Assembly (NCBI GenBank): GCA_963739805.1 | Contig: CAVUBJ010000005.1 | Location: 21,163 to 85,162, forward strand | DNA from: an uncultured Trueperaceae bacterium | GTDB lineage: Bacteria > Deinococcota > Deinococci > Deinococcales > Trueperaceae | DNA: 64,000 nt | Direction: 5' to 3' | In this document: positions 835-60,246 of the stretch, piece after piece | Numbering within the stretch: the stretch's first letter is position 1 | Layout of the letters: every line of letters starts with the position of its first letter | Notes under the pieces: generated by a model | Seen by the model: only the letters and a program-made list of their open reading frames with translations | The model's database searches: none | Told to the model about the DNA's origin: nothing | Translations under genes and position numbers: made by a program

Positions 835-2490
<1,656 letters not shown>

Positions 2491-5168: not shown

Positions 5169-5251
5169 GGGTCGTGCCCCTTGCGGTCGCGTTCGGGTCG
5201 CGGTGTGTCGGCACTCGACGGCGGGGTGCGGTCGACGTGGGTTCTCGGCCC

Positions 5252-5521: not shown

Positions 5522-5715
5522 GGTAGATAACCAACCTTCCTAGGAGTGGGCTCCGGAGCGGATCCGTGGGATAGAGTCGATGCCGCACCAGACCTCCAAC
5601 CTTCACAATCTAGCACACCGTGCGGCGGCGTCCAAGGCGGCGGGTTACGGCGCGCGCCGCCGCCCGGGCGCCCGCGCCGCGGCGCGGCGGCCGTGCCGGG
5701 CGCTATCCTCGCCAC

Positions 5716-6138
5716 ATGTTCGTGCGCCAATGGACCATCACGCTGCGCCCTCGCCCGCGCGGCATCCACCTCGTCACCGACGAGCTCCTGAGCGAGATCG
5801 ACCTCGCCGGTGCCGCCGCCGGGACGCTGCAGCTCTTCGCCCAGCACACCTCGGCGGCGCTGACCCTCAACGAGAACGCCTCCCCGGAGGTGCGCGCCGA
5901 CCTCGAGCGCTGGCTCTCGCGGGCCGTGCCGGACGGGGCTCCGTACTTCCGCCACCGCCTCGAGGGGGACGACGACATGCCCGCGCACGTCAAGGCGAGC
6001 CTGTTCGGGGCGAGCGTGAGCGTGCCGGTGACCCGCGGGCGATTGGCACTGGGGACCTGGCAGGGGGTCTACCTGTGCGAGTTCCGGGAGTCCGGCGGGC
6101 ACCGCAGGGTGGTGGCGACGCTCCTGGCCGAGGGGTAA
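5716..6138 (+). CDS. YjbQ/UPF0047 family protein (secondary thiamine-phosphate synthase-like)
   Basis: MFVRQWTITLRPRPRGIHLVTDE...HVKASLFGASVSVPV matches the YjbQ fold family. A TATCCT -10-like hexamer sits 6 nt upstream of the ATG. The Arg-rich upstream part of the track ORF was rejected. Confidence 0.8.
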   Translation: MFVRQWTITLRPRPRGIHLVTDELLSEIDLAGAAAGTLQLFAQHTSAALTLNENASPEVRADLERWLSRAVPDGAPYFRHRLEGDDDMPAHVKASLFGASVSVPVTRGRLALGTWQGVYLCEFRESGGHRRVVATLLAEG

Positions 6139-6156
6139 GGGCCGCTCACGCGTGCT

Positions 6157-8112: not shown

Positions 8113-8867
8113 TCCTCCTGGGTCTCGGGGCCCGGCTCGCGGCCGCCCCCACGGCCGCGGACGATGCTGTGGATGAGGATGCCGGCGGCCACGGAGGCAT
8201 TGAGCGACGCCACCTTGCCGCGCATCGGGATGCCGACGGTGTCGTCGCAGCGCTCCCGCACCAGGCGGCGCAGGCCGCCACCCTCCGAGCCGATGACGAG
8301 GGCGGCGTCGCGGTCCCAGTCGACCGCCTCGGGCGATTGGGCGGCGTCGCCGGCGGCCCCGTAGACCCAGACGTTGCGGTCCTTGAGCTCCTGCATGGTG
8401 CGCGGCAGGTTGGTGACGGTGACGATCGGGAGGTGGCTGGTGGCGCCCGCGGCCGTCTTCACCACCACGGGCGACAGCGGGGCGCTGCGGCGCTGTTCCA
8501 TCACCACGCCGTGCGCGCCGAGCACCTCCGCGCTGCGGATGATGGCACCCACGTTGTGGGGGTCGGTGAGCTGGTCGAGCAGGACCAGCAGCAGGCGCTC
8601 GCCGCGCTCGGCGGCAAGGCGGAAGCAGGCCTCCAGCTCGCTGGTCGGCACCTCCGGCAGCTCCGCGGCGACGCCCTGGTGGGACGTGGTGCGCAGCGCC
8701 TGGTCGAGGGCGATGCGCGGCACCTCCTCGAGCGGCACGCCGGCGCTGTCGGCCAGGCTGCGCAGCTCCTCGAGCGTGCCGCTGCGCACCCCGCGCGCCA
8801 CCAGCACGCGTTCGACGTCGCCCCCGCGGAGTGCCTCGAGGACTGCGTTGCGGCCGTAGATCAGCAT
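8109..8867 (-). CDS. rlmB: TrmH/SpoU family 23S rRNA 2'-O-methyltransferase (RlmB-like)
   Basis: MLIYGRNAVLEAL start. SpoU motifs LLVLLDQLTDPHNVGAIIRSAEVLG and LVIGSEGGGLR...SLNASVAAGILI. An alternative GTG start at 8891 would overlap the ribF stop (GTGA). Confidence 0.85.
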   Translation of the reverse strand: MLIYGRNAVLEALRGGDVERVLVARGVRSGTLEELRSLADSAGVPLEEVPRIALDQALRTTSHQGVAAELPEVPTSELEACFRLAAERGERLLLVLLDQLTDPHNVGAIIRSAEVLGAHGVVMEQRRSAPLSPVVVKTAAGATSHLPIVTVTNLPRTMQELKDRNVWVYGAAGDAAQSPEAVDWDRDAALVIGSEGGGLRRLVRERCDDTVGIPMRGKVASLNASVAAGILIHSIVRGRGGGREPGPETQEE

Positions 8868-8887
8868 GCCGTGAGTATACGCGCGCC

Positions 8888-9793
8888 TCACTCGCCCGCG
8901 GCGGGCGCCGCCAACGCGAGGCGCGCGGCGCGGGCGTCCAGGGCGAGCTGGCTGCGCAACGCGTCCACGCCGTCGAAGCGACGTTGCGGCCGCAGGTGGG
9001 CGTGGACGAAGGTGGTGATGTCGTGGCCGTAGAGGTCGCCCTCGAAGCCGAACAGGTGCGCCTCGAGCGACGGCGGTTCGTCCGGGAAACTGGGGCGCGG
9101 CCCCACGTTGGCCATGCCGTCGAAGCGCCCCAGCGGGGTGTCGACGCGTACCGCGAAGACGCCGACCGGTAGTGCCTTGCGGGGGTCGGTGGCCACGTTG
9201 GCGGTGGGAAAGCCGATCGTACGCCCGCGGCGCTGCCCCTCGACGACGGGCCCCTGCACGCGGTACGGGCCGCCCAGCAGGGCGTTGGCTCGAGCCACGT
9301 CGCCGCTCGAGAGGTGCTCGCGGATGTGCGACGACTTCACCACCTCGCCGTGAAGCGTCCTCAGGCCGAAGGCCTCCAGGCGCTCGGGGATGGGGGAGAG
9401 GTCGTTGAGGCCCCCGGCGCGCCCGTGGCCGAAGCGGAAGTCCTCCCCGACGATGATGGTGTGCGGCGCCAGGCGCCGGAGCTGATCGACGAACACCGCC
9501 TTGTCGGTGCGGGCGTAATCGCGGGAGAACGGGATCATCACCACGGCGTCCGGCGCGAAGGGCTCGAGCAGGGCGAGCTTCTCCTCGGCGCTACTGAGGA
9601 ACGTCGCGCGCCCGAACACCACCTTGGCGGGCGGGAAGAAGGTGAGCACCACGGCCGGGCGCGCGCCCTCGTCCGCCACCTCGCGCATGCGCTCGAGCAG
9701 CATGCGGTGGCCGAGGTGGACCCCGTCGAAGTTGCCGATCGACAGCACGCCGCCCTTGAGGTCGAGGTCCTCGGGCCCGTGGACGATCCTCAC
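8888..9793 (-). CDS. ribF: bifunctional riboflavin kinase / FMN adenylyltransferase
   Basis: SIGNFDGVHLGH (FAD synthetase HxGH) plus a C-terminal riboflavin kinase domain (YGHDITTFVHAHLRPQRRF). GTG start at 9793 overlapping the upstream Nudix stop (GTGA) is inferred. Confidence 0.8.
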   Translation of the reverse strand: MRIVHGPEDLDLKGGVLSIGNFDGVHLGHRMLLERMREVADEGARPAVVLTFFPPAKVVFGRATFLSSAEEKLALLEPFAPDAVVMIPFSRDYARTDKAVFVDQLRRLAPHTIIVGEDFRFGHGRAGGLNDLSPIPERLEAFGLRTLHGEVVKSSHIREHLSSGDVARANALLGGPYRVQGPVVEGQRRGRTIGFPTANVATDPRKALPVGVFAVRVDTPLGRFDGMANVGPRPSFPDEPPSLEAHLFGFEGDLYGHDITTFVHAHLRPQRRFDGVDALRSQLALDARAARLALAAPAAGE

Positions 9794-10344
9794 GGTGCCA
9801 CGCCGAGCCGGGCCAGCGCGTGGCGCAGCCCCACCAGCGTGGCGCCGCTGGTGGCCAGGCGGCCGGCGGCGACCTCGTGCCACAGCTCCTCGGCGTCGCG
9901 CCACTCGATCGCCAGCTCCTCCCCCTCGTCCGGCGTGCCCTCGGCCTCGACCACGTCGTGGGCGAGGTAGAGCCAGATCTGCTCGTCGCAGAATCCGGGG
10001 GAGGCGTAGAGGCGGGTGAGGAACTCGAGGCGCCCGCCGAGCTGGACCTCCTCGGCGAGCTCGCGGTGGGCGGCCTGCTCCGGGGTCTCGCCGGGATCGA
10101 TGAGCCCCGCGGGCAGCTCCCAGGTCGCGCCGCCGATGGCGGGGCGGCGCTGGCGTACGCCCAGAACGCTGCGGCCGCGTTGTACCAGCACGGCCACGGC
10201 GTCCGCGTGCTCGACGACCTCCCAGCGCCCGTCCAGCACCGCGAGCGTGAGGATGTGTCCCTGGTAGATCTCGCGCCTGGCGCGAGGGGTGTCGTCCTGC
10301 ACGAGAGTCAGCCTACCAGACGCGGTCGGGCGCGGGGCCCTCAC
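9790..10344 (-). CDS. NUDIX hydrolase (ADP-ribose pyrophosphatase-like)
   Basis: Nudix box GLIDPGETPEQAAHRELAEEVQL (Gly to Gln at the last box position). Confidence 0.75.
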   Translation of the reverse strand: MRAPRPTASGRLTLVQDDTPRARREIYQGHILTLAVLDGRWEVVEHADAVAVLVQRGRSVLGVRQRRPAIGGATWELPAGLIDPGETPEQAAHRELAEEVQLGGRLEFLTRLYASPGFCDEQIWLYLAHDVVEAEGTPDEGEELAIEWRDAEELWHEVAAGRLATSGATLVGLRHALARLGVAP

Positions 10345-15578: not shown

Positions 15579-16714
15579 TCCAGGCTCCCGCGGGCGGCCG
15601 CGACGGGGCGCGTGGGGCGTAGGTGGGGCAGCAGCAGGTCGACGATGCGCTCGGCGGCTCCGGCCGGGGTCCGGGCGGCCGCCGCGGCCGCGGCGCGGGA
15701 CCGGCGGGCGGGGTCGAGCAGCTCCGACCAGGCCCGAGGCAGGGCGGCGAGGTCGCTCTCGTCGACGAGCAGGCCGGCGCCGGCGGCCTCGACGGCGCGC
15801 GCGTTGTGGGTCTGGTGGTCCTCCGCGGCGGTGGGCAGCGGCACCATGATGAGCGGGACGCCATGGAAGGCGGCCTCGCTGAGCGTGCCGACGCCGGCGC
15901 GGGTGATCGCGAGGTCGGCGGCCGCGAAGGCCCCGGCCGCGTCGAGGTAGGGGTGCGGATGGTAGGTCGGATGGTCGGCCACGCGCGCGACCAGGGAGTC
16001 GAACCCGCGAGGGCCGCTGGAGTGGAGCACGTGCAGGCCCGCCGCCGCCGGGCCGAGCGCCTCGAAGGCTTCGGGGACGGCCCGGTTGAGCGCCGCGGAG
16101 CCCTGCGAGCCGCCCATCACGAGGGTGAGCGTAGCGTCGGCCGGGATGCCGAGGGCGGCGCGCGCGTCGGCGCGCGCCACGCGCCGCTCGCGTACCGGGA
16201 AGGGCTGCAGCGCCAGCGGTGCGCGGGCCGGGAGATGGGCGCCCGCCTCGCCCTGGGCCAGCACCACGACCCGGGCGCGGCCCGCGAACCAGCGCGTGAC
16301 GCGGCTCGGGAAGGCGTTACCCTCGTGCAGCGCCAGCGGCGTGCGCGTCACGGTGGCGGCCAGGCAACCGGGGAAGGAGGCGAAGCCACCGAACCCCACC
16401 ACCAGCCGCGGGCGCGCCCGCCGCACCGCGGCGACGGCGCCGGCGAGCCCGGCGAGGGCGGCCAGCGCCTGGCGCGGGTCGGGCCGTTGCCGGTCCCACT
16501 TGCCGGCCGCGACGCCGCAGAACGGCAGGCCGGCCTCGGCGACCAGGCTGGCCTCCATCCCCGAACGCTGGCCCAGGACGGCCACCTTCAGGCCGCGCCG
16601 GCCGGCGGCGCGGGCCACCGCCAGCGCCGGGTAGATGTGCCCGCCGGTGCCGCCCGTGGCGAGCAGCAGGTCGAGATCGCGCGGCAGGGGCGCGGCGCGC
16701 TCGGCGGCGCTCAT
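15575..16714 (-). CDS. murG: UDP-GlcNAc:undecaprenyl-PP-MurNAc-pentapeptide GlcNAc transferase
   Basis: LLLATGGTGGHIYPALAVA, a GT28 family signature. True start MSAAERAAP (ATG 16712-16714). The 150-aa Arg/His-rich upstream part of the track ORF was rejected. Confidence 0.9.
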   Translation of the reverse strand: MSAAERAAPLPRDLDLLLATGGTGGHIYPALAVARAAGRRGLKVAVLGQRSGMEASLVAEAGLPFCGVAAGKWDRQRPDPRQALAALAGLAGAVAAVRRARPRLVVGFGGFASFPGCLAATVTRTPLALHEGNAFPSRVTRWFAGRARVVVLAQGEAGAHLPARAPLALQPFPVRERRVARADARAALGIPADATLTLVMGGSQGSAALNRAVPEAFEALGPAAAGLHVLHSSGPRGFDSLVARVADHPTYHPHPYLDAAGAFAAADLAITRAGVGTLSEAAFHGVPLIMVPLPTAAEDHQTHNARAVEAAGAGLLVDESDLAALPRAWSELLDPARRSRAAAAAAARTPAGAAERIVDLLLPHLRPTRPVAAARGSLE

Positions 16715-17763
16715 GGAGCCACCCCCTCGCCACGCGCCTGACGGTGGGCGGAGTGGATGAAGCCCATGGCGATGGAGACCGACAGCAGGCTGTTGAGGCC
16801 GTAGCTGACGAACGGCAGAGGGATGCCCGTGATGGGGAAGAGGCCGGAGGCGACCAGCAGGTTCACGGCCGCCTGCCCGCCGATGTAGGCGCTTGCACCG
16901 GCCGCCAGCAGGCTGCCGGGCCCGCGGATGCTGGCGGCGATGCGCAGGCCCCGGCCTGCGAGCAGCACGAACAGCACCACCAGCGTGAGCACGCCGATGA
17001 AGCCCAGCGACTGCCCCACGGCGATGGCGACCATGTCGGTGTCGGCCTCCGGCACGCGCACCGGGCGCCCGGGTCCGATGCCGGTGACGCCGGCCTGCGC
17101 CAGCGCGCGGCGCGCGGCATAGGCCTGGTAGCTCGCCCCGGAGGTCTGCTGCTGGCCGCCCCACAGATCGGCGAATCCCGTGATGCGCTGCTGCAGGTAG
17201 TGGAACTGGCTGAGGTAGGGGCCGGCGACCAGCAGCGCGATCAGCGCCGCCGCGGTGCTGATCGACAGCAGCCGCGTCAGCGTGGTGCCGGCGGCGAGCA
17301 TGATGGCGAAGGCCAGGGCGAAGAGGAACAGCGCCGTGCTGACGTCGGGCTCGGCCACGATGAGTCCCGCCGCCAGGCCGATGACCACCATCGGGCGCCA
17401 GATCTGCCAGTTCCCCAGGTGGTTGTGGAAGAAGGCGGTGAGGTACGCGATGACGGTGACCTTCATGAACTCCGAGGGCTGGAGCGAGACCGGTCCGATC
17501 AGGATCCAGCGTTTGCTCTCGCTCCCGGCCGGGGAGACGCCGACGACCAGGACCGCGAGCAGCATCAGCAGCAGCGTGGCGTAGGCCCAGGGGCTGGCGC
17601 GCACGATGCGGCGGGGCGACACCCGGGCCACCAGCACGGTGAGTGCGAAGCCGGCCAGGAAACGCAGGCCGTGGGCCACCGCCGTGTCGGGGGAGGCGGC
17701 GGTGACGCCCACCACGCCGAGGGCGCCGAGAAGGAGTTGCAGGGTGATCAGGAAGGGGTCCAC
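16711..17763 (-). CDS. ftsW: peptidoglycan glycosyltransferase FtsW (SEDS family)
   Basis: Ten predicted TM segments; the SEDS family C-terminal part is conserved. GTG start (VDPFLITLQLL) is inferred. The track ORF runs 384 aa further upstream in junk. Confidence 0.8.
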   Translation of the reverse strand: MDPFLITLQLLLGALGVVGVTAASPDTAVAHGLRFLAGFALTVLVARVSPRRIVRASPWAYATLLLMLLAVLVVGVSPAGSESKRWILIGPVSLQPSEFMKVTVIAYLTAFFHNHLGNWQIWRPMVVIGLAAGLIVAEPDVSTALFLFALAFAIMLAAGTTLTRLLSISTAAALIALLVAGPYLSQFHYLQQRITGFADLWGGQQQTSGASYQAYAARRALAQAGVTGIGPGRPVRVPEADTDMVAIAVGQSLGFIGVLTLVVLFVLLAGRGLRIAASIRGPGSLLAAGASAYIGGQAAVNLLVASGLFPITGIPLPFVSYGLNSLLSVSIAMGFIHSAHRQARGEGVAP

Positions 17764-19091
17764 GGCGCCCCCTCGAGCTCGCGCACGGCGGCGCGGAAGA
17801 TCTCGGCGCGCTCGCGGTAGTCGCGGAACTGGTCGAACGAGGCCGCCAGCGGAGCCAACAGCACCCAGCCGCTGCCGTGGTGGTGGTCCCGGAGGTGCTG
17901 CAGTGCCTCGCGGGCCGCCCAGCGCATGGCCGCGGCGCCGTCGGTATCGGGGCAGACGCGCGCCCGCGCGTCGCTCGCGAAGGCCCGCGCGAAGTACGGG
18001 CCGGCCTCGCCCACGCCCAGCAGCAGCGACACGCGCTCGCGCACGAGCGGGCGCAGCTCCTCCAGCGAGGCGCGCTTGTCCTGGCCGCCGGCGATCCACA
18101 CCAGCGGCGTGGGGGTCGAGCGCAGGGCGGCCGCGACGGCCAGCGGGCGGGTGGCGATGGAGTCCTCGATGAAGCGTACGTCGCCGATGCGGCCCGCCGG
18201 CGCGTAGCGTCCCGGCAGCCCGCGGAACACCCGCAGCCCCGCCGCGATGGCGTCGCGCTCGAGCCCCACGGCGCGGCACGCCAGGGCCACCGCCAGCGCG
18301 TTGGCGACCTGGTGACGTCCGGTCACGGCCAGCTCCGCCGCGCCCAGCAGCGGGGCGCCGTCGAGGTGCAGCGCCTGCGTGGTGGGCTCGAGCCAGGCGT
18401 CGCTGGGCGAGCGCAGCGAGAAGCCGCGCGCGCGCGCCGGCCCCTCTTCCGCCCAGGCGGCCAGGCGGGGATCGTCGGCGTTGAACACGAAGCTGTCGCG
18501 CGCCTCGAGGTTGTCCAGCAGCCGTCGCTTGGCCGCGTGGTAGGCCTCGACGCTGCCGTGGCGGTCGATGTGATCCTCGCCGAGGTTGAGCACCACGGCG
18601 ACCTCCGGATGGAAGTCGGCGCAGCGCTCGAGTTGGAACGAGGACATCTCCACGACGTGCGTGCGCCCGGGCGCGGCGACGGCCGCCAGGGCCGGATCGA
18701 TGTTGCCGCCGGCGACGGCGTCTACGCCGGCGGCCTCCAGCGTGTCGGCGATCCAGCGGGTGGTGGTGCCCTTGCCGGCCGTGCCGGTCACGCCCAGGTA
18801 GCGCCCGGGCACCGTGCGTGCGACCCACTCCACCTCCCCGATGACCGGCGTGCCGCCCGCCCGCAGGCGCGCGAGGTCCGGGTGGTCGATGGGCACGCCG
18901 GGCGCGGCGATGCACAGATCCGCGCCGGCCTCGGCGGCGTCGAGCACGCGACGCGCGCCCGCCTCGGCCGCCGCGTCGAGATCGGGGCCGGCCTCGCGGG
19001 CGTCGAAGTACACCACGGCATGCCCCTGGCGGCGGGCCAGGCGCAACACCGCCAGGCCGCTGCGGCCCAGGCCGTAGATCAACAGCCTCAC
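17748..19091 (-). CDS. murD: UDP-N-acetylmuramoylalanine--D-glutamate ligase
   Basis: LIYGLGRSG, GVTGTAGKGTTT P-loop. GTG start overlaps the mraY stop (GTGA). Confidence 0.9.
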   Translation of the reverse strand: MRLLIYGLGRSGLAVLRLARRQGHAVVYFDAREAGPDLDAAAEAGARRVLDAAEAGADLCIAAPGVPIDHPDLARLRAGGTPVIGEVEWVARTVPGRYLGVTGTAGKGTTTRWIADTLEAAGVDAVAGGNIDPALAAVAAPGRTHVVEMSSFQLERCADFHPEVAVVLNLGEDHIDRHGSVEAYHAAKRRLLDNLEARDSFVFNADDPRLAAWAEEGPARARGFSLRSPSDAWLEPTTQALHLDGAPLLGAAELAVTGRHQVANALAVALACRAVGLERDAIAAGLRVFRGLPGRYAPAGRIGDVRFIEDSIATRPLAVAAALRSTPTPLVWIAGGQDKRASLEELRPLVRERVSLLLGVGEAGPYFARAFASDARARVCPDTDGAAAMRWAAREALQHLRDHHHGSGWVLLAPLAASFDQFRDYRERAEIFRAAVRELEGAPWTPS

Positions 19092-19999
19092 GGCCACCCC
19101 ACCCACAGGTAGTACGTCAGTGCCACCGCGACGGCGGTCACCGACAAGAAGCGCCACACCACGCGTGTCTCGCTCCAGCCGGAGAGCTCGAAGTGGTGGT
19201 GGAGCGGGCTCATGCGCAGCAGCCGGCGCCCGCCGGTGGCGCGGAAGTACGCCACCTGCGCCACCACGGAGAGCACCTCGAGTACCGGCACGATGGCGAT
19301 GAGCGGCAGGTACCACACGACCCCCTGCTGGATCGCCAGCCCGGCCAACGCGGCGCCGAGCGCCTCCGAGCCGACGCCACCGAGGAACACGCGGGCGGGG
19401 TGGGCGTTGTACCAGAGGAAGCCGAGCAGCGCGCCGAGCAGCGCGGCCGCCAGCGGGGAGCCGAGGAACAACAGCAGCATGATGGCCATCATCCCGCCGG
19501 CCAGGCCGTCGAGCCCGTCCGAGAAGTTCAGGGCGTTGACGGCGCCGACCACGATGAAGGCCAGACCGAACAGGTCGAGCCATGGCACCCCGAACAGCGC
19601 CGCGCCGGCCCGCACCGCCCAGGCGGCGTAGGCCAGCGCCAGGGCACCCTGGCCGAGCAGGCGGTAGCGCGCCAGCAGGCCGGTGGCGGCGTCCGCGCCC
19701 CGCGCCGCGCGGCGCTTGCGGGCCAGCGACGTCAGGTCGTCGTAGAGCCCGAGGACCCCGCTTCCCAGGATCAGCAGCACGGTGGGCAGCTCCTGAGCGG
19801 GCGCCGGGGAGCGCAGCCACCACACCGCCACCGCGGCGACCAGCACGGCGGTGCCGCCCATGGTCGGGGTGCCCGCCTTGGCCAGATGACTGCCGGGACC
19901 GTCGCTGCGCACCACCTTGCCCCAGCCCAGGCGCCTGGCCAGCTGGATGAAGGTGCCGCTCAGCAGCAGGCCGAGCAGGGCCGCGACCAGGATGGTCAT
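19088..19999 (-). CDS. mraY: phospho-N-acetylmuramoyl-pentapeptide transferase
   Basis: NALNFSDGLDGLAGG, HHHFE motif, multiple TM helices. ATG overlaps the murF stop. Confidence 0.95.
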   Translation of the reverse strand: MTILVAALLGLLLSGTFIQLARRLGWGKVVRSDGPGSHLAKAGTPTMGGTAVLVAAVAVWWLRSPAPAQELPTVLLILGSGVLGLYDDLTSLARKRRAARGADAATGLLARYRLLGQGALALAYAAWAVRAGAALFGVPWLDLFGLAFIVVGAVNALNFSDGLDGLAGGMMAIMLLLFLGSPLAAALLGALLGFLWYNAHPARVFLGGVGSEALGAALAGLAIQQGVVWYLPLIAIVPVLEVLSVVAQVAYFRATGGRRLLRMSPLHHHFELSGWSETRVVWRFLSVTAVAVALTYYLWVGWP

Positions 20000-24865: not shown

Positions 24866-25258
<393 letters not shown>

Positions 25259-49047: not shown

Positions 49048-49347
49048 GGCGTGCGTCCGCACGAGGGCATGAGCGACGGCCTCGAGGGTCCCGCGCATCG
49101 CGGGTGCCCGCCGGAGCCCCTGGAGACGGTCACGCTGCGCTAGCATGGGCGCGTGCCCGACGGTCGCGCGCGACGAGCTTGCGGCCCCGCGTCCGGTGCC
49201 GGCGCCGCGGTACGCGCCGCGCACGCGCTCGATGTTCGGCCCGGCGCCGACGCCGTGCCTGAGCCCGCCGCGTCGAGCGCGTCCGTCACTGCTTCGCGCG
49301 CAGCGCGGCCGACGCGGGCGGGCCGCGGCCGCCATCCGCAGGCGGAT

Positions 49348-49980
49348 ATGGACGCCGAGCGCCTGCTCGCGCTGCTCGCGCTGCTCGGTGGCCGGGGCAT
49401 CCCAACCTGGATCGACGGTGGATGGTGCGTCGACGCCTTGCTCGGGCGCCAGACGCGCGCCCACGACGACCTCGACCTGGCCGTGGCGCGCGAGGACGTG
49501 GAGCGCCTGTGCGCGGCCCTGGCGGAGGCGGGCTACGCGCCGTGGGATGACGGCACGGCCGGTTCGCGCTGCCCAGACGGCCTGGAGTACCTGGTGGACG
49601 AGCGTGGGCACCAGGTCGACGTGCACCGGGTCAGGTTCACGCCGGACGGGGACGGCGTGCACCGCATGGCGAACGGGGAGGACTGGATCTACCCCGCGCG
49701 CGCGTTCGCCGGCCGCGGCCGCGTACTGGGCCGCGAGGTCGCGTGCCTCGCGGCCGACGTCATGCTGGTGTGCCACACCACCGGCTACGCGCTGGACGCG
49801 GCCCACCGGGCGGACGCGGCGGCGCTGGCCGATGCCTTCGCGCTGCCGCTACCGTCCTTCCGTTGGGCCGAGGACGAGCCTGGCGAGCGCGCGGGGCCCG
49901 GGAACCAGCCGTCCGAGGGCGAGGCAATTGGCGGCGAAGCTGCCGGGGACGGGTCGCCCGGCCGAACAGACGAGGGCTGA
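49348..49980 (+). CDS. ANT(2'')-Ia family nucleotidyltransferase (PF10706-like; possible aminoglycoside nucleotidyltransferase)
   Basis: IPTWIDGGWCVDALLGRQTRAHDDLDL aligns almost residue for residue with ANT(2'')-Ia LPLWIGGGWAIDARLGRVTRKHDDIDL. Acidic Gly-rich C-terminal tail. Start could be as early as GTG 49153. Confidence 0.75.
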   Translation: MDAERLLALLALLGGRGIPTWIDGGWCVDALLGRQTRAHDDLDLAVAREDVERLCAALAEAGYAPWDDGTAGSRCPDGLEYLVDERGHQVDVHRVRFTPDGDGVHRMANGEDWIYPARAFAGRGRVLGREVACLAADVMLVCHTTGYALDAAHRADAAALADAFALPLPSFRWAEDEPGERAGPGNQPSEGEAIGGEAAGDGSPGRTDEG

Positions 49981-52021: not shown

Positions 52022-52490
52022 CGCGGCCGCCCACGTAGGGGCGCCCGTGCCGTGGCGCGGCCGTGGTGTGTGCCGGCGTGTCGGTCGGCCGCGCTGTGGC
52101 TGCGCCGCGTGGCGGCGGCTCGCGGCGGCGCGTCGTGTCGGCGCGCGCGTCTGGGTCGATGCGGGTGTCGCCCCGCGCACCCCGGGCCGGGTCCCCCCGG
52201 CAGGCGTCGGCGGTGCTAGACGGAGTGTTATCAAATCTCGCTCGCGCCCCGCAGGTGTCGTCGGGCCGAATACTGCCCGCACCGCCCCCAGCCAGGACGG
52301 GGGAGACGCCCCCTCGCCGGTCGGCGGTGGCGTGCCGCTTCTTGCTCTGGCATGACGCCATGGATCGCGCTGGGGGCGGCGATCCTGCCCATAGCTCGAC
52401 CGTTCGGTATCGTCGGGGTGAACGTTGGCCGGAGCCGTCTGTACGGACGCGCCGTGCGCCCCAGTGCGCCCGAGCGCGCCCGAGCGCGGC

Positions 52491-53474
52491 TCAGTCCGCC
52501 AGGGCGCCGCGCAGGGCGCGCCAGGAGACCTCGGCGTCGGCAGAACGTGCCTCCGCCCGGCGCAGCGTCGCCACCGCGGTCGCGACGTCGGTGAGGCGCC
52601 AGCGGGTGCGGTAGAGGTCCAGCGCGGCGCGCTCCATCGTCGCCGCGGCGCCGGCGGTCCGTCGGTAGGCCCGCCAAGCGGCGAGCCGCCTGCCGAGCAG
52701 CAGGTGCAGGTCGCGCTCCGCCGGTGCCAGGGCCACGGTGTCCCAATCCACCAACGCGAGGCGTGCATTCGGGCCAGCGATCACGTTTCCCGGGTGGGGC
52801 TCGCCGTGGGTCACGACCCAGGGGGAGCCTCGCCGCCGCAACCGGGCGACGCCGGCGTCGTACGCCTGCAGCTCGCGGACCAGGTGACGCGCGCGGGCCT
52901 CGAGGCGGCGGCGGGTGGGCTCGGCGTACGGGCCGGTGGTCCACGGCCTCGCGAGGTCTTCGAGGGCGCGCTCGAGCACGTCGCGCGCCTGCAGCGCGAA
53001 GTCCTCGCGCGGCGCCAGATCGGTCGGGAGGCGTGTGGTGGCCGCGTGCAGGCGTCCGATCGCCGAGGCCAAGCGGCGGCGCTCCCGGGCCGTGCGCGCG
53101 GCACCGAAGCCGCGCGTCGTACCGTACACGAAGGGCGCCAGATGGACGGCGTAGTGGTGACAGAGGCGGCGCAAGGGGACGCCACGGCCGTCGGGTAGCG
53201 GTGCGATCACGAAGCCCAGGTCGGCGCTCTCCCGCAGGGCCATGGCCGTGCGGAGCGCGCGCATCAAGTGGTCGAAGGCGGTGTCGGGGCCGGCGGCGTG
53301 CTTGATCTCGGCAACGCTCACGAAGCCGACCCGACCCGCTGCGTCCATCGCCCGCCAGTGGTACCCACCGAAGCCGACCGGCAGGTGGCGCAGGGTCACC
53401 GGCCGCAGGCCCCACCCCGCGACGAGCTCCTCGGCGAGCCGGGCGGGGTCCAGGTCCGGCGGTGGATCGTGCAC
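52491..53474 (-). CDS. APH/phosphotransferase enzyme family protein (aminoglycoside phosphotransferase-like kinase)
   Basis: Catalytic loop THGEPHPGNVI (HGDxxxxN-like) and LVDWDTVALAPAERD (DWD is the DFG equivalent). Size 327 aa. Substrate unknown. Confidence 0.7.
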   Translation of the reverse strand: MHDPPPDLDPARLAEELVAGWGLRPVTLRHLPVGFGGYHWRAMDAAGRVGFVSVAEIKHAAGPDTAFDHLMRALRTAMALRESADLGFVIAPLPDGRGVPLRRLCHHYAVHLAPFVYGTTRGFGAARTARERRRLASAIGRLHAATTRLPTDLAPREDFALQARDVLERALEDLARPWTTGPYAEPTRRRLEARARHLVRELQAYDAGVARLRRRGSPWVVTHGEPHPGNVIAGPNARLALVDWDTVALAPAERDLHLLLGRRLAAWRAYRRTAGAAATMERAALDLYRTRWRLTDVATAVATLRRAEARSADAEVSWRALRGALAD

Positions 53475-53526
53475 GATCCAGCGTAGCGGACGCGGCGCGA
53501 GCCCGCCGGCGGTGCGGCCGAGCCCC

Positions 53527-53574
53527 TATGTCACGAGCGCACGAGCCGTTCTCTCGTGCGCTCGTGAAACATGT
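53527..53574. repeat. palindrome B, related to palindrome A with a nested inner palindrome
   Basis: ATGTCACGAGCGCACGAG-ccgttctc-TCGTGCGCTCGTGAAACATGTG, about 50 bp upstream of the APH start. Confidence 0.75.
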
Positions 53575-53861
53575 GTTCCGTGGCTCCCCGAGCACGGCTC
53601 CGCGCGCCATCAGGGCCGCCGCTGCGGCCAGGGCCCGTCGCGCTGCGCGGGCGTGTTGCATGCCGCAGCCGGCGCCGAGGGGTCCGCCGGCCGTGGGAGC
53701 GCCCGTGTCGCTGTGCGCCGGAGCCGCCCCGACGGTGCTCATGGGGCCGGTGAGGGTGCGCGGTACGCGGCGCCCCGGCGGCGCCCCGACCCGCGGCGCC
53801 GATCCGGGCGCGCGTGCGGTGCGGGCGTTGCGACGTCGGCCTGGGGCGCTCGGGGTGCGGG

Positions 53862-53903
53862 CGTCGACGACGACCGCCGTCGACGACCGCCGTCGACGCG
53901 ACG
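53862..53903. repeat. 13-bp tandem repeat (cgaccgccgtcga, about 2.5 copies)
   Basis: Direct reading of the non-coding GC-rich stretch. Confidence 0.6.
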
Positions 53904-54075
53904 CTGTGCGGGCCCGTGCACGGGAGCGCGCGGCCGCCGGTGGCGCGCCCGGACGGGCGACCGCCGCCCCGGCACGAGGATCCGCCCGCGATCCGGGGCC
54001 CGGGACCGCGGGGCCCGCGACCCGACCGGCGTACGCGGGGCCGGTGGCAACCCGGCCGGCCACGGCGCGATGCGG

Positions 54076-54120
54076 GGCCGAAGGGTCGGCGAAGGGTCGG
54101 CGAAGGGTCGGCGACGGGTG
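54076..54120. repeat. 11-bp tandem repeat (ggcgaagggtc, about 4 copies, outer copies degenerate)
   Basis: Sequence ggccgaagggtc ggcgaagggtc ggcgaagggtc ggcgacgggtg. Confidence 0.65.
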
Positions 54121-54229
54121 CACTCGAGCGGAGGCACGGCGCCGGGATTCGGAAGCTCGGCGGCGGCGGTCGGCCCGGTAGCGACCCGCGCCGTCCGGAC
54201 GCGCGCGGGTCGAGCCCGAAGGGGTGAAA

Positions 54230-54255
54230 AACCTGATAACTCGTCTTATCAGGTT
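54230..54255. promoter_or_regulatory. AT-rich dif-like recombination site candidate: 10-bp perfect inverted arms around a 6-bp spacer
   Basis: AACCTGATAA-ctcgtc-TTATCAGGTT. The inner ATAA-N6-TTAT geometry matches dif. Lies 170 bp upstream of the Xer-family recombinase in about 75% GC DNA. Confidence 0.4.
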
Positions 54256-54271
54256 CCGCTATCCTGAACGC

Positions 54272-54427
54272 ATGAAGCGCTCCGACGACTCCCCACGCCG
54301 CCGCGGCCGGTCCTCGCGGCCGGCCCGTGCCCACACCGCGGAGTGCCCGCTCCGTCGCTCGGTGCCGCCCTCGCGCCGCCCCATGCCCCGATGCTACGAC
54401 GGCCGGGCCGACGGAGGCGACGCGTGA
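54272..54427 (+). CDS. small Arg-rich hypothetical ORF whose TGA overlaps the recombinase GTG
   Basis: 51 aa from ATG 54272 (67 aa if GTG 54224, which would include the inverted repeat). GC3-rich; no SD; no homology recognised. Confidence 0.2.
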   Translation: MKRSDDSPRRRGRSSRPARAHTAECPLRRSVPPSRRPMPRCYDGRADGGDA

Positions 54428-55413
54428 GCACGCTCGAGCGCTACCAGGGGGACGCACTGAACCGTGCCGAGGCGTGGGCCAACCTCTCGCCGGAGGCGCT
54501 GCGGCGCCGCGCCATGGTCGCCGCCAATCAGCGCGATCCCGAGGCGCTGTGGGGGCTCACCGAGGCGTACCTGTTCCTGCACGGCTCGAAGGGTGCGCGC
54601 GTGAGCCGGCACACGCTGCGCACCTACCGGCGCGGCCTGCTGGATCTGCTCCGGGGCTGGCCGCACGAGAACCTGTTGCGTCCCAGCCGTGACGCGGGCG
54701 TGCTCTACATCCGCCGCTTGGAGACGACACCGGTCGACTCGGACGGTGCCCTGCCGCAGCCCGCCACGCTCCAGGTCAAGCTGGCCGCTGCACGGACCGT
54801 GTACCACGCGCTGCGCTGGGCCGGGGCCACCGAGGCGCGCCCCTTCGAGGACGTGCGCGTCGCCAAGGACGCCACGCCTCCCTGGGAGAAGCGCCGCCCC
54901 TACGGCGACGGCGAGGTCGACGCGCTGCTCGAGCTGGCCAGCGTGGCCGAACGCGTGGTCGTGCTGCTCGGCGCCCACGCCGGCCTGCGCGTGAGCGAGA
55001 TGACGGCGCTGCGCTGGGAGGACGTGGACCTGCGCGGCACAAGCCTCCACGTGCGCTCGGGCAAGGGCGGCAAGAGCGCCCACGTGCGCATGACCCGCCG
55101 CCTGCGCCAGTCGCTGGGCGCGCTCCGCGCCGAGGGCAGCACGCCGGGCCGTCAACGCGAGGCCGCCCTGGTGCTGCCCTGGGGCACCGATCACACCCGC
55201 AAGCGCTTCCGCAGGTTGTGTGCCCGCGCCGGCGTCGAGTACGCCTCGGCCGGCGTGCACGGCCTTCGACACGGCGCTGGCACCCGCTACTACCGGCAGA
55301 CGCACGACCTCGGCCGGGTCGCGGCGCACCTGCGCCACGCCGACATCCAGACCACGCGCATCTACGCGAAGATCGACCGGGCCACTATCCAGGACGACAT
55401 CGAGGACTGGTGA
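54424..55413 (+). CDS. XerC/XerD-family tyrosine recombinase
   Basis: Box I GLRVSEMTALRWEDVDL. Box II HGLRHGAGTRYY...HLRHADIQTTRIYAKI with catalytic R..HxxR..Y. GTG start with a GGAGG RBS 9 nt upstream. Confidence 0.85.
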   Translation: MSTLERYQGDALNRAEAWANLSPEALRRRAMVAANQRDPEALWGLTEAYLFLHGSKGARVSRHTLRTYRRGLLDLLRGWPHENLLRPSRDAGVLYIRRLETTPVDSDGALPQPATLQVKLAAARTVYHALRWAGATEARPFEDVRVAKDATPPWEKRRPYGDGEVDALLELASVAERVVVLLGAHAGLRVSEMTALRWEDVDLRGTSLHVRSGKGGKSAHVRMTRRLRQSLGALRAEGSTPGRQREAALVLPWGTDHTRKRFRRLCARAGVEYASAGVHGLRHGAGTRYYRQTHDLGRVAAHLRHADIQTTRIYAKIDRATIQDDIEDW

Positions 55414-56853: not shown

Positions 56854-59800
56854 TCAGCCGGCGGCGGCCGCGTCCTCGCGTCGGATGCTGAACACGCGGC
56901 TCACCCCCGCCTCGGTCGTCACACCCCACAGCACGTCGGCGACCTCGAAGGTGGCCTTCTGGTGGGTGATCAGCACGAACTGGGTGCCGGACTCGGCCAG
57001 CCGCGTCAGGAAGCCGCAGTAGCGCCGGATGTTGGCCTCGTCGAGGGGCGCGTCGACCTCGTCCAGTACGGCGATGGGGAGGCCGCCGCCGGTGCTGGGG
57101 TCCGCCATCAGCGCGAACAGGAAGGCCAGGGCGCCCATCGTCCGCTCGCCCACCGACAGCAGGTGCAGCGACTGTGTCTGTTTGCCCGGCGGTTGCAGCT
57201 TGATGCGCACCCCCACGGGTCGGCCGTCCTCCTCGTCCACCTCGATGTCCCCGCGGCCGTCGCCGCCGAAGAGCTGCCGGACGTGCGCCGCGAAGCTGTC
57301 GCGCAGGCGCCCGAGCGCCTCGCCCAGGCGGGCCGTTGTCTCGCGATCGATGCGCTGCAGCGTCCCCTCCAGCTCGGTCACCGCCAGGGCCGCCTGCACC
57401 GCCTCGACCTCCAGCCCCTCCTTGCGCGCGCGCGTCTCCCGCAGGTCCCGCCCAGCGCGATGGTTCACGGGACCCAGCGCCTCCAGCGCCTCGCCCACCT
57501 CCCGCAGGCGGGCCCGCGCGGCCCGCTCGCTGATCGCCAGGAGCTCCACGCCCTCGGGGAACTGCGCCAGCTCCTCGCCGGCGAGCTCCAGGGCGGTCTC
57601 GCGTCGGGCGAGCTGGACCTTGCACTCCTCCAGGCCCTGGGAGCGCTCGGCCTGACGCTCGGTCTCGGCCGTCAGCCGGTCCTCGAGCTCGTCGCTGGCC
57701 CGGCGCGCGCTGCGGAGCGCCTCGGCCTGCGCCTCGAGGCCCGTCGGCAAGGCGGCACGCGCCGCCTCGAGCTCCCGGCGAGCGGTCGCCTCCTCCCCGG
57801 CCAGGGCCTCCTGCGCGTGCTCCAGCCGGCCCGCCTCGGTCCGCAGCTCGGCCGCCCGCGCCCGTTCCTGCTCGAAGCGCTCGCGCGCGGCCGCATACGA
57901 GCGCCAGCGCTCCTCGAGCACCAATCGCTGCTGCCGGGCATCCGCCAGGGCGCGTTCCCATGCGCCCTCTCGCGTGCGCAGGTCCTCGAGCTCCTCGGTG
58001 GCCGCCCGCCGCTCCTCCTCCGCCCGCTGTGGGCCATGCTCGTCGATCGGCGCCGCGGGAGGGTGAAGCTCCGCGCCCTCCCGCTCGGCACCCTCGAGGC
58101 GCTGCCGCAGGTCCGCGAGGAGCTGCCGCCTGCCGGAGGCCTGCTCGCGCTCCTGCGCCAGCCCGCGGTCGGCGTCGGCGCGTTCGGCCGCCGCGGTGGC
58201 CTGCCGCTCCTGGGCCTGTCGCAGGGCCGCCTGGGCCTCCTGCAGCGACCCCAGTGCGGCGGCCGCCTCGCCCCGCGCTTCCTCCGCGGCCGCTTCGGCC
58301 TCCTCGAGTTCGGCCGCCGCGCCCAGCACGCCGGCCTGGTGTGAGCGTCGCCCTCCGCTCATCGCCCCCGAGGCCTCCAGGATGTCCCCCTCCAGCGTCA
58401 CCATCCGCGGGCGGAAGCCGGAGGCGCGCGCCATCGCGGTGGCGTCCTCCATCGCCTCCATCAGGACCGTGCCGCCCAGGAGCTGCTCCACCATGGTCGC
58501 GAAGGTCTCCTCCGCCTCGACCAGGTCCGTCACGCGGCCGATCACGCCGCGGCGCCCCAGGACCTCGTGGGGCACCGTGCCCCGCCCGCCCTGGAGCAGA
58601 TCGAGCGGCAGCACCGTCACGAAGCCGCCCTCGCGCCGCACGTGCTGCAGGACCCGCTGGCCGGTCTCAGCCGTGTCCACCACCACGTACTCCGCGCGGC
58701 GCCCCAGCGCAGCGGAGACCGCCGTCTGGTAGCGCTGGGGTACGCGCAGCAAGTCCGCCACCGAGCCGATCACGCCGTCGATGCCGGAGCCCAGCGCGTT
58801 GCGGGGGCCCTGCGCGTAGCCGCGTCGGGCCTCGAAGGCGGCGCGCTGGCGGACCGCCGCGCGCTCCCGCGCCATGGCCTCGGCCTCCGCGCGGGCGTGG
58901 CGCCGGTGAAGTTCGGCCACCGCGTCGCGCGCCCGCTCCAGCGCCGCCTCAGCGGCCGCGGCCGCCGCCGAGGCGCGTTCCGCGCCCTCTTCCAGCGCCT
59001 CGAGGTCGGCGGCGGGCTCCGCCCCAAGCTCCTCGAGGCGCGAGGCCGCGTCGGCCCGCTGCCGCTCCAGCTCACCGCTGCGCGCCTCGAAGCGCGCCCA
59101 CTCCTGCTCCTGCGCCGCGCGGCGCCGTTGCTGCTCCGCCAGGGCGTCGGTGGCCGCGGCCAGGCGGTCTCGGGCGGCGGCGAGCTCCCCCGCCAGCGTC
59201 TCCAGGGCCGCGCTCGCCTCGGCCTCCTCCCGCCGGTGCGGCTCCGCGTCGCCTTCGGGAGCGCCGGGCGGCTCCGCCGCCTCGAGGCGCCGAGCCTCGC
59301 TACGCGCGGACTCCAGGCTGCGCGCCACGCCCTCGCGTCGCTCGGCGGCCGTTGCGGCGCGCTCCTCCGCCACCCGCAGGTCTCCGCGGCGGGCTTCCGC
59401 CTCGGCCGTGGCGCTGCGATAGCGTTCCTCGCAGGCGTCGCGCTCGCGGCGAGCCGCATCGAGGGCGCTGCGCAGCTCGGCGAGCGCCGCGCGCCCCTCC
59501 AGGATCCCCGCCTCGAGGCCCCCCTGGCGCGACCGCAACCCGCCGATATCGGCCTCGAGCCCGTCGACGCGCGCGCGCGCCACCGTCGTGCGCAGCCGCA
59601 GGGACTCGGCCGAAAGGGCGGCGTGGCGTTCGGCGTCCGCCGCCTCGGCGGCAAGGGCGTCGCAGCGCGCTCCGAGCTCGGCCAGCACGTCCTCGAGCCG
59701 ATCGAGGTGGCCGCGGGCGGTGTCCAGCCGGTCCTGCGTCTGCTCCCGCCGCGCGCTCATGCGGGCGACGCCCGCGGCCTCCGCGACATAGGCCAGCAGC

Positions 59801-60246
59801 TTGGGTGGGTCCGCCATCAGCACCTGGCTGACCTCCCCTTGCCCGATGATGGCGAGCCCGGAGCGGCCCAGTCCACTGCCCGCGAGCGCCTCCTCCAGGT
59901 CGAGGAAGCGCGCGTTCTTGCCGTTGAGCCGCAGCCTAGTGGTGCCTTCGCGGTCCAGGCTGCGGTACAGCTTGAGCGTCCGCGGGCCCTGACTGAGCTC
60001 CACCTCCACCTCCGCCAGCCCGAGACTGCGCTTCCCCGCGGCTCCGTGGAAGATGAGGTCGGTCTTGTCCGACGCCCGGAACTCACGCGCCCGGCCGCCC
60101 CCCGAGGTCCACTTGAGGGCGTCGATGAGGTTGGACTTGCCCGAGCCGTTGGGCCCGATGATGGCGGTGACGCCGGCAGCGAACTCGACGGTGGTGCGGT
60201 TGCCGAAGCTCTTGAAGCCCTGTAGCGTCAGCGAGGCGAGCCGCAC
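56854..60246 (-). CDS. smc: chromosome segregation protein SMC
   Basis: N-terminal Walker A GPNGSGKSN; long coiled coils; hinge; C-terminal signature and Walker B LDEVDAPLD. Confidence 0.95.
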   Translation of the reverse strand: MRLASLTLQGFKSFGNRTTVEFAAGVTAIIGPNGSGKSNLIDALKWTSGGGRAREFRASDKTDLIFHGAAGKRSLGLAEVEVELSQGPRTLKLYRSLDREGTTRLRLNGKNARFLDLEEALAGSGLGRSGLAIIGQGEVSQVLMADPPKLLAYVAEAAGVARMSARREQTQDRLDTARGHLDRLEDVLAELGARCDALAAEAADAERHAALSAESLRLRTTVARARVDGLEADIGGLRSRQGGLEAGILEGRAALAELRSALDAARRERDACEERYRSATAEAEARRGDLRVAEERAATAAERREGVARSLESARSEARRLEAAEPPGAPEGDAEPHRREEAEASAALETLAGELAAARDRLAAATDALAEQQRRRAAQEQEWARFEARSGELERQRADAASRLEELGAEPAADLEALEEGAERASAAAAAAEAALERARDAVAELHRRHARAEAEAMARERAAVRQRAAFEARRGYAQGPRNALGSGIDGVIGSVADLLRVPQRYQTAVSAALGRRAEYVVVDTAETGQRVLQHVRREGGFVTVLPLDLLQGGRGTVPHEVLGRRGVIGRVTDLVEAEETFATMVEQLLGGTVLMEAMEDATAMARASGFRPRMVTLEGDILEASGAMSGGRRSHQAGVLGAAAELEEAEAAAEEARGEAAAALGSLQEAQAALRQAQERQATAAAERADADRGLAQEREQASGRRQLLADLRQRLEGAEREGAELHPPAAPIDEHGPQRAEEERRAATEELEDLRTREGAWERALADARQQRLVLEERWRSYAAARERFEQERARAAELRTEAGRLEHAQEALAGEEATARRELEAARAALPTGLEAQAEALRSARRASDELEDRLTAETERQAERSQGLEECKVQLARRETALELAGEELAQFPEGVELLAISERAARARLREVGEALEALGPVNHRAGRDLRETRARKEGLEVEAVQAALAVTELEGTLQRIDRETTARLGEALGRLRDSFAAHVRQLFGGDGRGDIEVDEEDGRPVGVRIKLQPPGKQTQSLHLLSVGERTMGALAFLFALMADPSTGGGLPIAVLDEVDAPLDEANIRRYCGFLTRLAESGTQFVLITHQKATFEVADVLWGVTTEAGVSRVFSIRREDAAAAG

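Follow-up and report, generated by a model that had tools for sequence, protein, structure and literature searches.

Nearly all bacteria with circular chromosomes resolve chromosome dimers. For the Deinococcus lineage, a model of extreme DNA repair with multipartite and polyploid genomes, the dimer-resolution system is undefined. A 2026 survey could identify no canonical dif or FtsK-orienting polar sequence (KOPS) pattern in Deinococcus radiodurans (PMC13342612). Six putative recombinases of this species were listed in 2022, uncharacterised (PMC9764985, PMC7671480). Here we ask what a short palindrome does in the chromosome of a relative, which belongs to a family of heat- and radiation-tolerant bacteria. 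The palindrome lies just upstream of a lone tyrosine recombinase gene in 64,000 nucleotides of DNA from an uncultured Trueperaceae bacterium (assembly GCA_963739805.1, contig CAVUBJ010000005.1, positions 21,163 to 85,162; this whole stretch is called the window). A first-pass annotation of the sequence had read the pair as a dif-like site next to an Xer-family recombinase in the style of XerS or XerH, or alternatively as the att core of a small integrative remnant. Is the palindrome the target of the enzyme, and if so, what is the pair for?

Our best reading is a self-contained, autoregulated module for dimer resolution with a single recombinase. It would be Xer/dif-like in function and belong to a distinct family. 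We hold this reading with a confidence slightly above even.

A conserved palindrome before a recombinase gene

The sequence AACCTGATAACTCGTCTTATCAGGTT is a perfect 10-6-10 inverted repeat at 54230-54255 of the window (AACCTGATAA-CTCGTC-TTATCAGGTT). Its basic description in the first-pass annotation holds. The G+C content is 38% compared to about 76% around it (the annotation gave about 75%). The geometry is dif-like, with inverted arms, a 6-bp spacer and inner ATAA/TTAT. The distance to the recombinase start is 168 bp (annotated as 170 bp), with the palindrome upstream. The palindrome is single-copy in the window with up to 3 mismatches permitted, and none of 100 dinucleotide-preserving shuffles contained a match. 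The site consists of the following features:

54225 to 54252, + strand: conserved 28-bp block TG-x-AAAAA-CCTGATAA-CTCGTC-TTATCAG, from an alignment of 11 orthologous upstream regions; the same block is found in 25 lineages
54227 to 54231, + strand: A5 tract that flanks and overlaps the left arm; invariant, roughly -45 to -41 relative to the inferred start of transcription
54230 to 54239, no strand: left arm AACCTGATAA, a perfect inverted repeat of 54246-54255
54240 to 54245, + strand: asymmetric 6-bp spacer CTCGTC, the putative strand-exchange region, kept in all lineages but one
54246 to 54255, no strand: right arm TTATCAGGTT; TTATCA is invariant, and the bases outside it, GGTT in the window, differ between lineages

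The unit conserved across lineages is 54225-54252 and not the full 10-6-10 repeat. The left flank keeps its A-tract, and the right arm varies in its outermost 3 bp. In the 11 aligned upstream regions 27 consecutive columns are invariant or nearly so, and the flanks are unalignable. Across lineages, CCTGATAA changes only once (C to G in L052). The asymmetric spacer is as well conserved as the arms; its sole variant is CTCGTG (L004/L029). The A5 tract may be an extension of the recombinase arm or an UP-like promoter element, to judge from its position.

The link between site and recombinase appears from both directions. Loci picked by protein similarity are free of bias toward the site, and in them the core 22-mer has 0-1 mismatches. 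The 10 species-level genomes obtained in this way (75-79% identity) all carry the block upstream of the recombinase. The block persists upstream of recombinases with 65-67% protein identity (L019, L052). Conversely, an exact-pattern scan of metagenome contigs returned 29 contigs with one site each. The recombinase begins 50-160 bp 3' of the site, in the same orientation, on every informative contig (25/25), and three contigs stop at the site. Altogether, 42 loci carry the site once per contig.

Two contigs were set aside. L042 and L043 (OFHI01007227.1, OFHF01005094.1) are short, of low coverage, and carry the site without a full recombinase. They share the site, a short upstream open reading frame (uORF, described below) and the first 35-45 recombinase codons, and then continue into unrelated sequence from different break points inside the gene. 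They are probably assembly chimeras; real rearrangements are the alternative.

Judged by its conservation, the palindrome is not due to chance, because every orthologue retrieved, down to 65% identity, is preceded by the 28-bp block in near-invariant form, between flanks that are unalignable. Still, a transcription factor unrelated to the recombinase might use it as an operator, or the palindrome might be structural or fortuitous and stand before the gene by coincidence. The sequence can fold as a hairpin (-7.3 kcal/mol, z=-3.8), and plasmids of Burkholderia gladioli contain a near-identical palindrome where no recombinase gene lies nearer than 12 kb. We nevertheless find this explanation highly improbable. 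The shuffles give zero chance expectation, the linkage to the recombinase family is 25/25 and the arms co-vary with the recombinase lineage over four genera. In two other Burkholderiaceae contexts the look-alike is again located just 5' of a tyrosine recombinase gene. The Deinococcus RDRM/DdrO operator, whose half-sites we take to have the opposite orientation, was set aside.

The Burkholderiaceae look-alike is CCTGATAA-CTCGTA-TTATCAGG. It has the same arms and 5 of the 6 spacer bases of the Trueperaceae site, and is carried by about 77 plasmids. We inspected three contexts:

B. glumae bglu_1p, NC_012723 (L074 2501-2525)
B. gladioli, NZ_CP023524 (L073 2501-2528)
Caballeronia, NZ_CP084269 (L076 6001-6025)

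In B. glumae and Caballeronia the look-alike lies 86-240 bp 5' of a DUF3701-type tyrosine recombinase of 517-606 aa. The neighbours in B. gladioli include a DarT/DarG-like pair. DUF3701-type recombinases are called the 'TnpR subgroup' in PMC8138268. They come from another phylum, have an N-terminal DUF3701 and share only the catalytic domain with the Trueperaceae enzyme (BLASTP E=0.01; hhalign 90%). As a sequence comparison, the parallel supports the palindrome as a recombinase core site. The sharing of one palindrome by two unrelated recombinases in two phyla is itself an unexplained parallel.

The enzyme and its promoter

What kind of enzyme follows the site? The gene and its control region contain these features:

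54260 to 54265, + strand: -10 box TATCCT (TAnnnT class); T, A and the final T are invariant in the alignment
54272 to 54427, + strand: leaderless uORF of 51 codons, from the ATG at 54272 to TGA, Arg-rich; the ATG is 6 nt past the -10 box and invariant
54424 to 54427, + strand: GTGA stop/start overlap, a putative translational coupling read from the sequence
54424 to 55413, + strand: tyrosine recombinase of 329 aa, of the simple type with a core-binding and a catalytic domain, extended at the N-terminus by three extra helices

The first-pass annotation had the correct end of the gene (55413), but its start at 54224 is only the first GTG of the frame. The GTG at 54424 is backed by the orthologues, which are mostly 329 aa long and begin with M/V-S-x-L-Q-R-Y-Q-G-D. 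The protein contains the Pfam domains Phage_integrase and Phage_int_SAM_1 (SAM-like core-binding). R189, K217, H279, R282 and Y314 are invariant across the family and H305 is nearly so. Hence an inactive repressor with a recombinase fold is unlikely. The boxes GLRVSE, HGLRH and TTRIYA, which had been cited as canonical Xer boxes, are indeed present. They are generic boxes of tyrosine recombinases and not specific to Xer.

By curated NCBIfam models the recombinase is outside XerC (72.3 bits, cut-off 335), XerD (54.4, cut-off 330), XerS (48.2, cut-off 267) and XerA (NF040815; 72.9, cut-off 220). Deeper orthologues likewise score below these four cut-offs, and other tyrosine recombinases of a Truepera metagenome-assembled genome (MAG) are also below those for XerC and XerD. 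The proposed XerS/XerH style is supported in that the module is conserved and its site adjoins the gene, and is not supported as a family assignment. The closest solved structure is XerA (5HXY, E=1.7e-13; top Foldseek hits), followed by IntI4, Brujita Int, XerD and XerH; the match to XerH is confined to the catalytic C-terminus (E=1.8e-6). The AlphaFold model has a mean pLDDT (predicted local distance difference test) of 77 and a weak C-terminus. Residues 11-53 are helical (pLDDT 85-95). The model contains no beta-rich arm-binding domain, the N-terminal extension being helical. By the classification of PMC8138268, the lack of such a domain speaks against an integrase of the phage or integrative and conjugative element (ICE) type.

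A sister group of longer relatives (about 430-467 aa; P0107, P0109, P0111, P0114, P0116-P0118) has an N-terminal Sigma70_r4 helix-turn-helix (HTH) fused to the recombinase. One member (L056 10001-11404) is found in a different context, with a ParA-like gene and another integrase, and has no recognisable site.

The first-pass annotation overlooked the leaderless promoter into which the site is built. In 25 lineages the layout is the site, 5-6 nt, TAnnnT, 6 nt and ATG. Here, the gap is counted from the 26-bp unit 54229-54254; the palindrome proper ends 4 nt 5' of the box. A scan with the sigma-70 consensus found no -35 hexamer and no -35/-10 promoter, so we call the promoter from the conserved TAnnnT and the leaderless ATG. 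In Deinococcus about 60% of mRNAs are leaderless with a TAnnnT -10 box (PMC4007540). With the ATG as +1, the site spans about -42 to -17. Therefore, bound recombinase should block RNA polymerase at its own promoter and shut off its own synthesis, a prediction from the layout.

The small Arg-rich reading frame that overlaps the recombinase start by GTGA had been annotated correctly; its conservation had not been noticed. In the clade of the window (at least 75% identity) the invariant ATG opens a uORF of 18-51 codons. The peptide sequences are unrelated, and in all 14 lineages the stop codon of the uORF overlaps the recombinase start as GTGA or ATGA. Read by eye, the deep lineage L055 also combines a uORF with such an overlap. 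In the clade with 65-73% identity the leaderless ATG is the start of the recombinase itself. The pattern suggests that the small reading frame is a conserved device for translational coupling whose peptide itself is not conserved. Together, the promoter-embedded site and the stop/start overlap of the uORF appear to form an unusual regulatory design, conserved from Thermales to Deinococcales.

The 750-bp non-coding stretch 5' of the site contains GC-rich short tandem repeats at 54079-54119, 53868-53898 and 53984-54022. The units are 11 nt (CGAAGGGTCGG, 3.7 copies), 13 nt (2.4 copies) and 15 nt (2.7 copies). This stretch is not conserved in other lineages.

The promoter raises a simpler explanation. 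The palindrome could be a pure autoregulatory operator, through which the recombinase (or a protein with a recombinase fold) represses its own leaderless promoter. The substrates would then be elsewhere, or recombination would have been lost. The site is constantly 3-7 nt 5' of the -10 box in many lineages, even where an HNH-like gene has been inserted (L054). Repressors with a recombinase fold are known, MrpR/YopR (PMC10516654), and SroF is among the fold matches. Four observations speak against an operator and nothing else. The catalytic residues are invariant (H305 nearly so) over deep divergence, unlike those of the known recombinase-fold repressors. As a recombinase the enzyme requires a substrate, and we found no other conserved candidate for one. 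The asymmetric spacer is conserved like the arms, which an operator that only requires spacing would not need. Finally, the site is 2.8 kb from the gene in pDAETH-5 and about 45 nt from the promoter in L053. We consider the pure operator unlikely. That the palindrome is the cognate binding site of the adjacent recombinase is, in contrast, very probable. That it is also the actual recombination site is a less certain prediction, which we still expect to be correct.

Neighbours, variable segments and plasmid relatives

Is the module part of a mobile element? Recombinase orthologues of about 329 aa are numerous in Trueperaceae (Deinococcales) MAGs and metagenomes, with one locus per genome. Their neighbours are AspRS, HisRS, MgtE, an APH-like kinase, a CHRD protein, SMC, an M20 peptidase and DnaJ. 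The same gene order is found again in independent genomes: AspRS-HisRS-(2 genes)-MgtE-[variable]-site-recombinase-CHRD-[variable]-SMC-M20-DnaJ. Because this housekeeping synteny is conserved, the Trueperaceae module is, as far as gene order tells, chromosomal, vertically inherited and not part of a mobile element. The att core proposed as an alternative by the first-pass annotation does not survive this comparison. Besides the conserved synteny, a search of 17 loci that tolerated up to 7 of 22 mismatches turned up no further copy of the site, intact or degenerate, within 6-10 kb, including near variable segments. There is no tRNA in the window, no copy of the site on the viral contigs and phage genomes scanned, and no arm-binding domain in the enzyme.

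A related explanation is a chromosomal landing pad. In this case, the site would be attB-like and a domesticated integrase would capture and excise islands, similar to integrative mobile elements exploiting Xer (IMEX) or integrons. The DNA that separates the site from MgtE (or HisRS) is indeed variable in content. It measures 0.7 to 5 kb when counted from MgtE and up to 10 kb overall (window 52022-54224; L001, L003, L007, L010). In L019 a 10-kb defence island (1-9862; type I restriction-modification, TIR, reverse transcriptase, AbiEi, Fic) abuts the site. The region 3' of the recombinase is also variable, and small inversions break around the block. Despite this variability we think a landing pad quite unlikely. 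In the 17 loci no second or degenerate site flanks the variable segments, including the one in the window, which holds an APH(9)-like kinase. The Trueperaceae site was not found on Deinococcota plasmids either. An integrase of this kind would have to act without an arm-binding domain, and no Xis-like partner was seen.

Inversions around the module invite one more explanation, a programmed switch that would invert or otherwise rearrange DNA between the site and an inverted partner. Lineages do differ by inversions next to the module, in which the SMC/response-regulator block and DnaE, together with AsnRS, swap sides. No partner site exists within 6-10 kb at any of the 17 loci, the site is single-copy in the window, and the inversions are fixed differences between distant lineages and not polymorphisms. 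We give hardly any weight to such a switch. The gene smc (window 56854-60246, - strand) is located within about 1-8 kb of the recombinase in all lineages (L019, L021, L022, L052-L055), even where inversions put it across the AspRS-HisRS-site-recombinase block. This linkage could be functional or merely reflect small local inversions.

Some further features of the window were recorded. An ANT(2'')-like nucleotidyltransferase (49153-49980, + strand) and the APH(9)-like phosphotransferase (52491-53474, - strand) lie near the module; both are far under the curated cut-offs for resistance genes. The only Rfam match at gathering level in the window is a bacterial RNase P RNA class A (24867-25253, - strand, 258 bits). 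About 4.4 kb at 15579-19995 contain no reading frame that passes a coding filter based on third-position G+C (GC3), have an AT skew of up to +0.20 and no rRNA or Rfam match.

Outside the close relatives, the family is mostly found on plasmids. By tblastn against PLSDB, 72 plasmid records carry full-length homologues (31-46% identity), and 69 of these records are from Deinococcus. The remaining plasmid homologues are from Oceanithermus, Meiothermus and Ammonifex, and three Thermus phages carry further ones. Copies are spread over replicons: 7 in strain QL22, 4 in D. aetherius and 4 in D. gobiensis. D. radiodurans has one homologue on pMP1 and one on the 412-kb chromosome II. One homologue on each of many replicons is the pattern expected of multimer-resolution systems. 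The plasmid homologues are often near toxin-antitoxin stability genes. In a neighbour-joining tree (drawn without support values) the chromosomal Trueperaceae clade lies inside an otherwise extrachromosomal family. Many of the plasmid homologues have a site of the same design next to the gene. Candidate sites of these deeper relatives are:

L055 (55% identity, 49% G+C): ATTTTGGATAA-CCATCC-TTATCCAAAAT with perfect arms, followed by TAATAG and a leaderless uORF of 25 codons with an ATGA overlap
L054: ATTTCCCAGAA-GTCACC-TTCTGGGAAAT, then TATAGT, the ATG of an inserted HNH-like gene, then the recombinase
L053: AAAGATAA-GTAGCC-TTATCCTG, upstream of an inserted gene that resembles the one in L054
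L011 (Truepera plasmid): CCCTATCATAA-TGGGTG-TTATAACAAGG, then TACTAT, 6 nt, ATG
D. radiodurans pMP1: GCCGTGATAA-TTCAAG-TTATACCGCTG, 52 nt 5' of the gene, then TATCCT
D. aetherius pDAETH-1: CCCATAGATAA-GGTGTG-TTATCTATGGG, adjoins the ATG
QL22 unnamed5 and D7000 p_4: CCCAGAGTTAA-TGTATG (or TTCATG)-TTATCTATGGG, adjoins the ATG
AJ005 p17k: CCCCCGCTAA-GTTTTG-TTATCGTGGGG, adjoins the ATG
D. grandis pDEGR-3: ACCCCGGACAA-GTCTTG-TTATCCGGGGG, then TATTCT, 6 nt, ATG
Oceanithermus pOCEPR01: ATGTCCACTAA-TACTTG-TTAGTGAACAT, then TATCCT, 6 nt, ATG
Meiothermus pMtWR-220: ATTTCCCATAA-GTAAAA-TTATGCGAAAT, then TAAGCT, 6 nt, ATG

In these deeper relatives the 11-6-11 geometry is kept and the arms co-vary, mostly followed by TAnnnT and ATG. 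The spacers are again 6 bp long, and mostly C-rich in CCATCC, GTCACC and GTAGCC. An unbiased scan for 11-6-11 dyads ranked these sites as the best upstream dyad in 12 of 21 loci (combined p=0.008 with close relatives excluded). In lower-GC Trueperaceae lineages a small gene of the HNH/HTH type, or a remnant of it, lies between the site-promoter and the recombinase (L053 9479-9988, L054 9466-10008, L022 9282-9584). Where this gene is inserted, the site stays with the promoter and not next to the recombinase gene. In pDAETH-5 the site at 2.8 kb is the only one of its kind. The L011 contig is a concatemer of a circle of about 13 kb. An ATAA-N6-TTAT candidate in L021 was rejected as ambiguous, since it overlaps a textbook TTGACA-N17-TATAAT promoter.

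The pMP1 site (NZ_CP068793.1 124207-124233; L057 2865-2891) is the sole ATAA-N6-TTAT on the complete 177-kb replicon. The adjacent 'site-specific integrase' is probably the megaplasmid recombinase DR_B0104 listed in PMC9764985.

Dimer resolution, the terminus and known systems

How would the module work? Two recombinase monomers would bind to the inverted arms (CCTGATAA / TTATCAGG). Two sites would then synapse, a pair available only while sister replicons are linked head-to-tail in a dimer. Strand exchange over the 6-bp spacer CTCGTC would resolve the dimer to monomers, in the manner of XerS/difSL, XerH/difH, archaeal XerA/dif or plasmid Cre/loxP. Bound recombinase would also repress its own -10-only promoter, with a transcript that would start at the ATG. 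In the clade of the window, recombinase would be made only by re-initiation after the short leaderless uORF (via the GTGA overlap), and thus at a low level. For dimer resolution as the function, we see the balance as even.

A chromosomal dimer-resolution site might be located at the replication terminus, and GC skew had been proposed as a check. In the window this check gives a suggestive result. The cumulative GC skew peaks at 54-55 kb. Over the 54 kb upstream of the site, GC3 skew is -0.067 for genes on the + strand and -0.171 for genes on the - strand (p=0.0005), which marks the + strand as the G-rich one there. This strand relation inverts downstream of the site, in 8 genes only. Raw GC skew in the new lineages is +0.014 upstream and -0.021 downstream. 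In 8 deeper loci the right-side genes that point toward the site have a higher GC3 skew (p=0.037); across other lineages the results are mixed.

We also searched for polar motifs. Most of the strongly skewed k-mers in an unbiased 7/8-mer scan follow gene orientation and do not replicate. Two G-rich polar candidates, CGGGGGA and GGGCGGGG, were fixed before validation on new loci. The second one is polar toward the site in the window (14:2 upstream, 0:4 downstream) and in the validation loci (4:0 and 1:4, p=0.048). These counts are too small for a KOPS-like call and we do not rely on them.

Several observations weigh against dimer resolution or against a location at the terminus. The left-side GC3 skew effect fails to replicate in further lineages (p=0.7). 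Downstream of the site the window offers only 8 genes, and the syntenic minus-strand SMC block confounds the raw skew. The polar KOPS-type motifs of E. coli and B. subtilis, GGGNAGGG and GAGAAGGG, have no polarity around the site, and CGGGGGA failed on the new loci (1:1 upstream, 1:2 downstream). Upstream, 22 genes are oriented away from the site and 15 toward it. On pMP1 the global skew turn comes 23 kb before the site, which lies at a local maximum (rank 19 of 177 positions). The single-copy status of the Trueperaceae site covers only the 64-kb window and loci of 12-21 kb. No recognisable site was found at D. radiodurans chromosome II, D. proteolyticus, D. deserti P2, the Thermus phages and L022, and no convincing one either at L056, L062, L065 and L067-L069. 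Lastly, the fixed position in the promoter could make regulation the main or only role. A location of the module's site at the replication terminus is, in our view, possible and somewhat doubtful.

The plasmid relatives allow a wider proposal, which we make tentatively and with less than even confidence. The recombinase family with promoter-embedded 11-6-11 sites could be the 'missing' Xer/dif system of the Deinococcota, with a single recombinase per replicon, and the Trueperaceae module could be a domesticated plasmid cassette. Such recombinases would resolve the chromosome in Trueperaceae; in Deinococcus they would act on megaplasmids and plasmids, pMP1 of D. radiodurans among them. This would explain the lack of a canonical dif or KOPS pattern in D. 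radiodurans noted in the survey mentioned above. Concrete candidates are now at hand, the 28-bp site and its enzyme in Trueperaceae and GCCGTGATAA-TTCAAG-TTATACCGCTG of D. radiodurans R1 pMP1. If the proposal is true, the module would be a fourth kind of single-recombinase Xer-like system, and a plasmid resolution cassette domesticated by a chromosome.

How does the module compare to known systems? XerS/difSL of streptococci and lactococci and XerH/difH of Helicobacter and Campylobacter resolve chromosome dimers with a single recombinase and a gene-adjacent site (PMC3025954, PMC8138268). The Trueperaceae module shares with them one tyrosine recombinase and an adjoining site, inverted arms, a 6-bp centre, AT-rich inner positions and, as far as the loci and replicons scanned tell, one module per replicon. 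Unlike them, it has its site inside a leaderless promoter, coupled to a uORF in one clade, and its family is otherwise plasmid-borne in Deinococcota. The scores separate it as well: it falls far below the XerS cut-off (48 against 267 bits) and resembles XerH only in the catalytic C-terminus.

Archaeal XerA/dif is also a single-recombinase system, and XerA provides both the closest solved structure and the best-scoring sequence model. The dif site of P. abyssi has the inner geometry ATAA-N6-TTAT. In contrast to XerA, the enzyme here reaches 73 bits against a cut-off of 220, carries the three-helix N-terminal extension, and is bacterial and specific to Deinococcota. With XerC/XerD-dif the module shares a site of the 28-bp class, the 11-6-11 layout, inner ATAA/TTAT and the same proposed role in dimer resolution. 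It differs in having one recombinase (72 and 54 bits against 335 and 330), near-palindromic arms and a gene-adjacent site that overlaps the promoter.

Two other groups of recombinase-fold proteins are less similar. Repressors such as MrpR/YopR and SroF have a degenerate active site, unlike the conserved catalytic residues here. Phage and ICE integrases differ from the module, which has no arm-binding domain, no second copy of the site near it in 17 loci and no tRNA in the window, and sits in a housekeeping neighbourhood.

The last comparison is with the tyrosine resolvases of mobile replicons. In Tn4430 TnpI/IRS, P1 Cre/loxP and F ResD/rfsF the resolution site is upstream of the recombinase gene, next to its promoter or overlapping it, with scope for autoregulation. 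Like these, the module described here is a self-contained cassette of recombinase and site for each replicon, with the site 5' of the gene, as seen for the plasmid homologues. Unlike these, it has no accessory direct repeats that we could see, and its Trueperaceae copy is chromosomal and syntenic.

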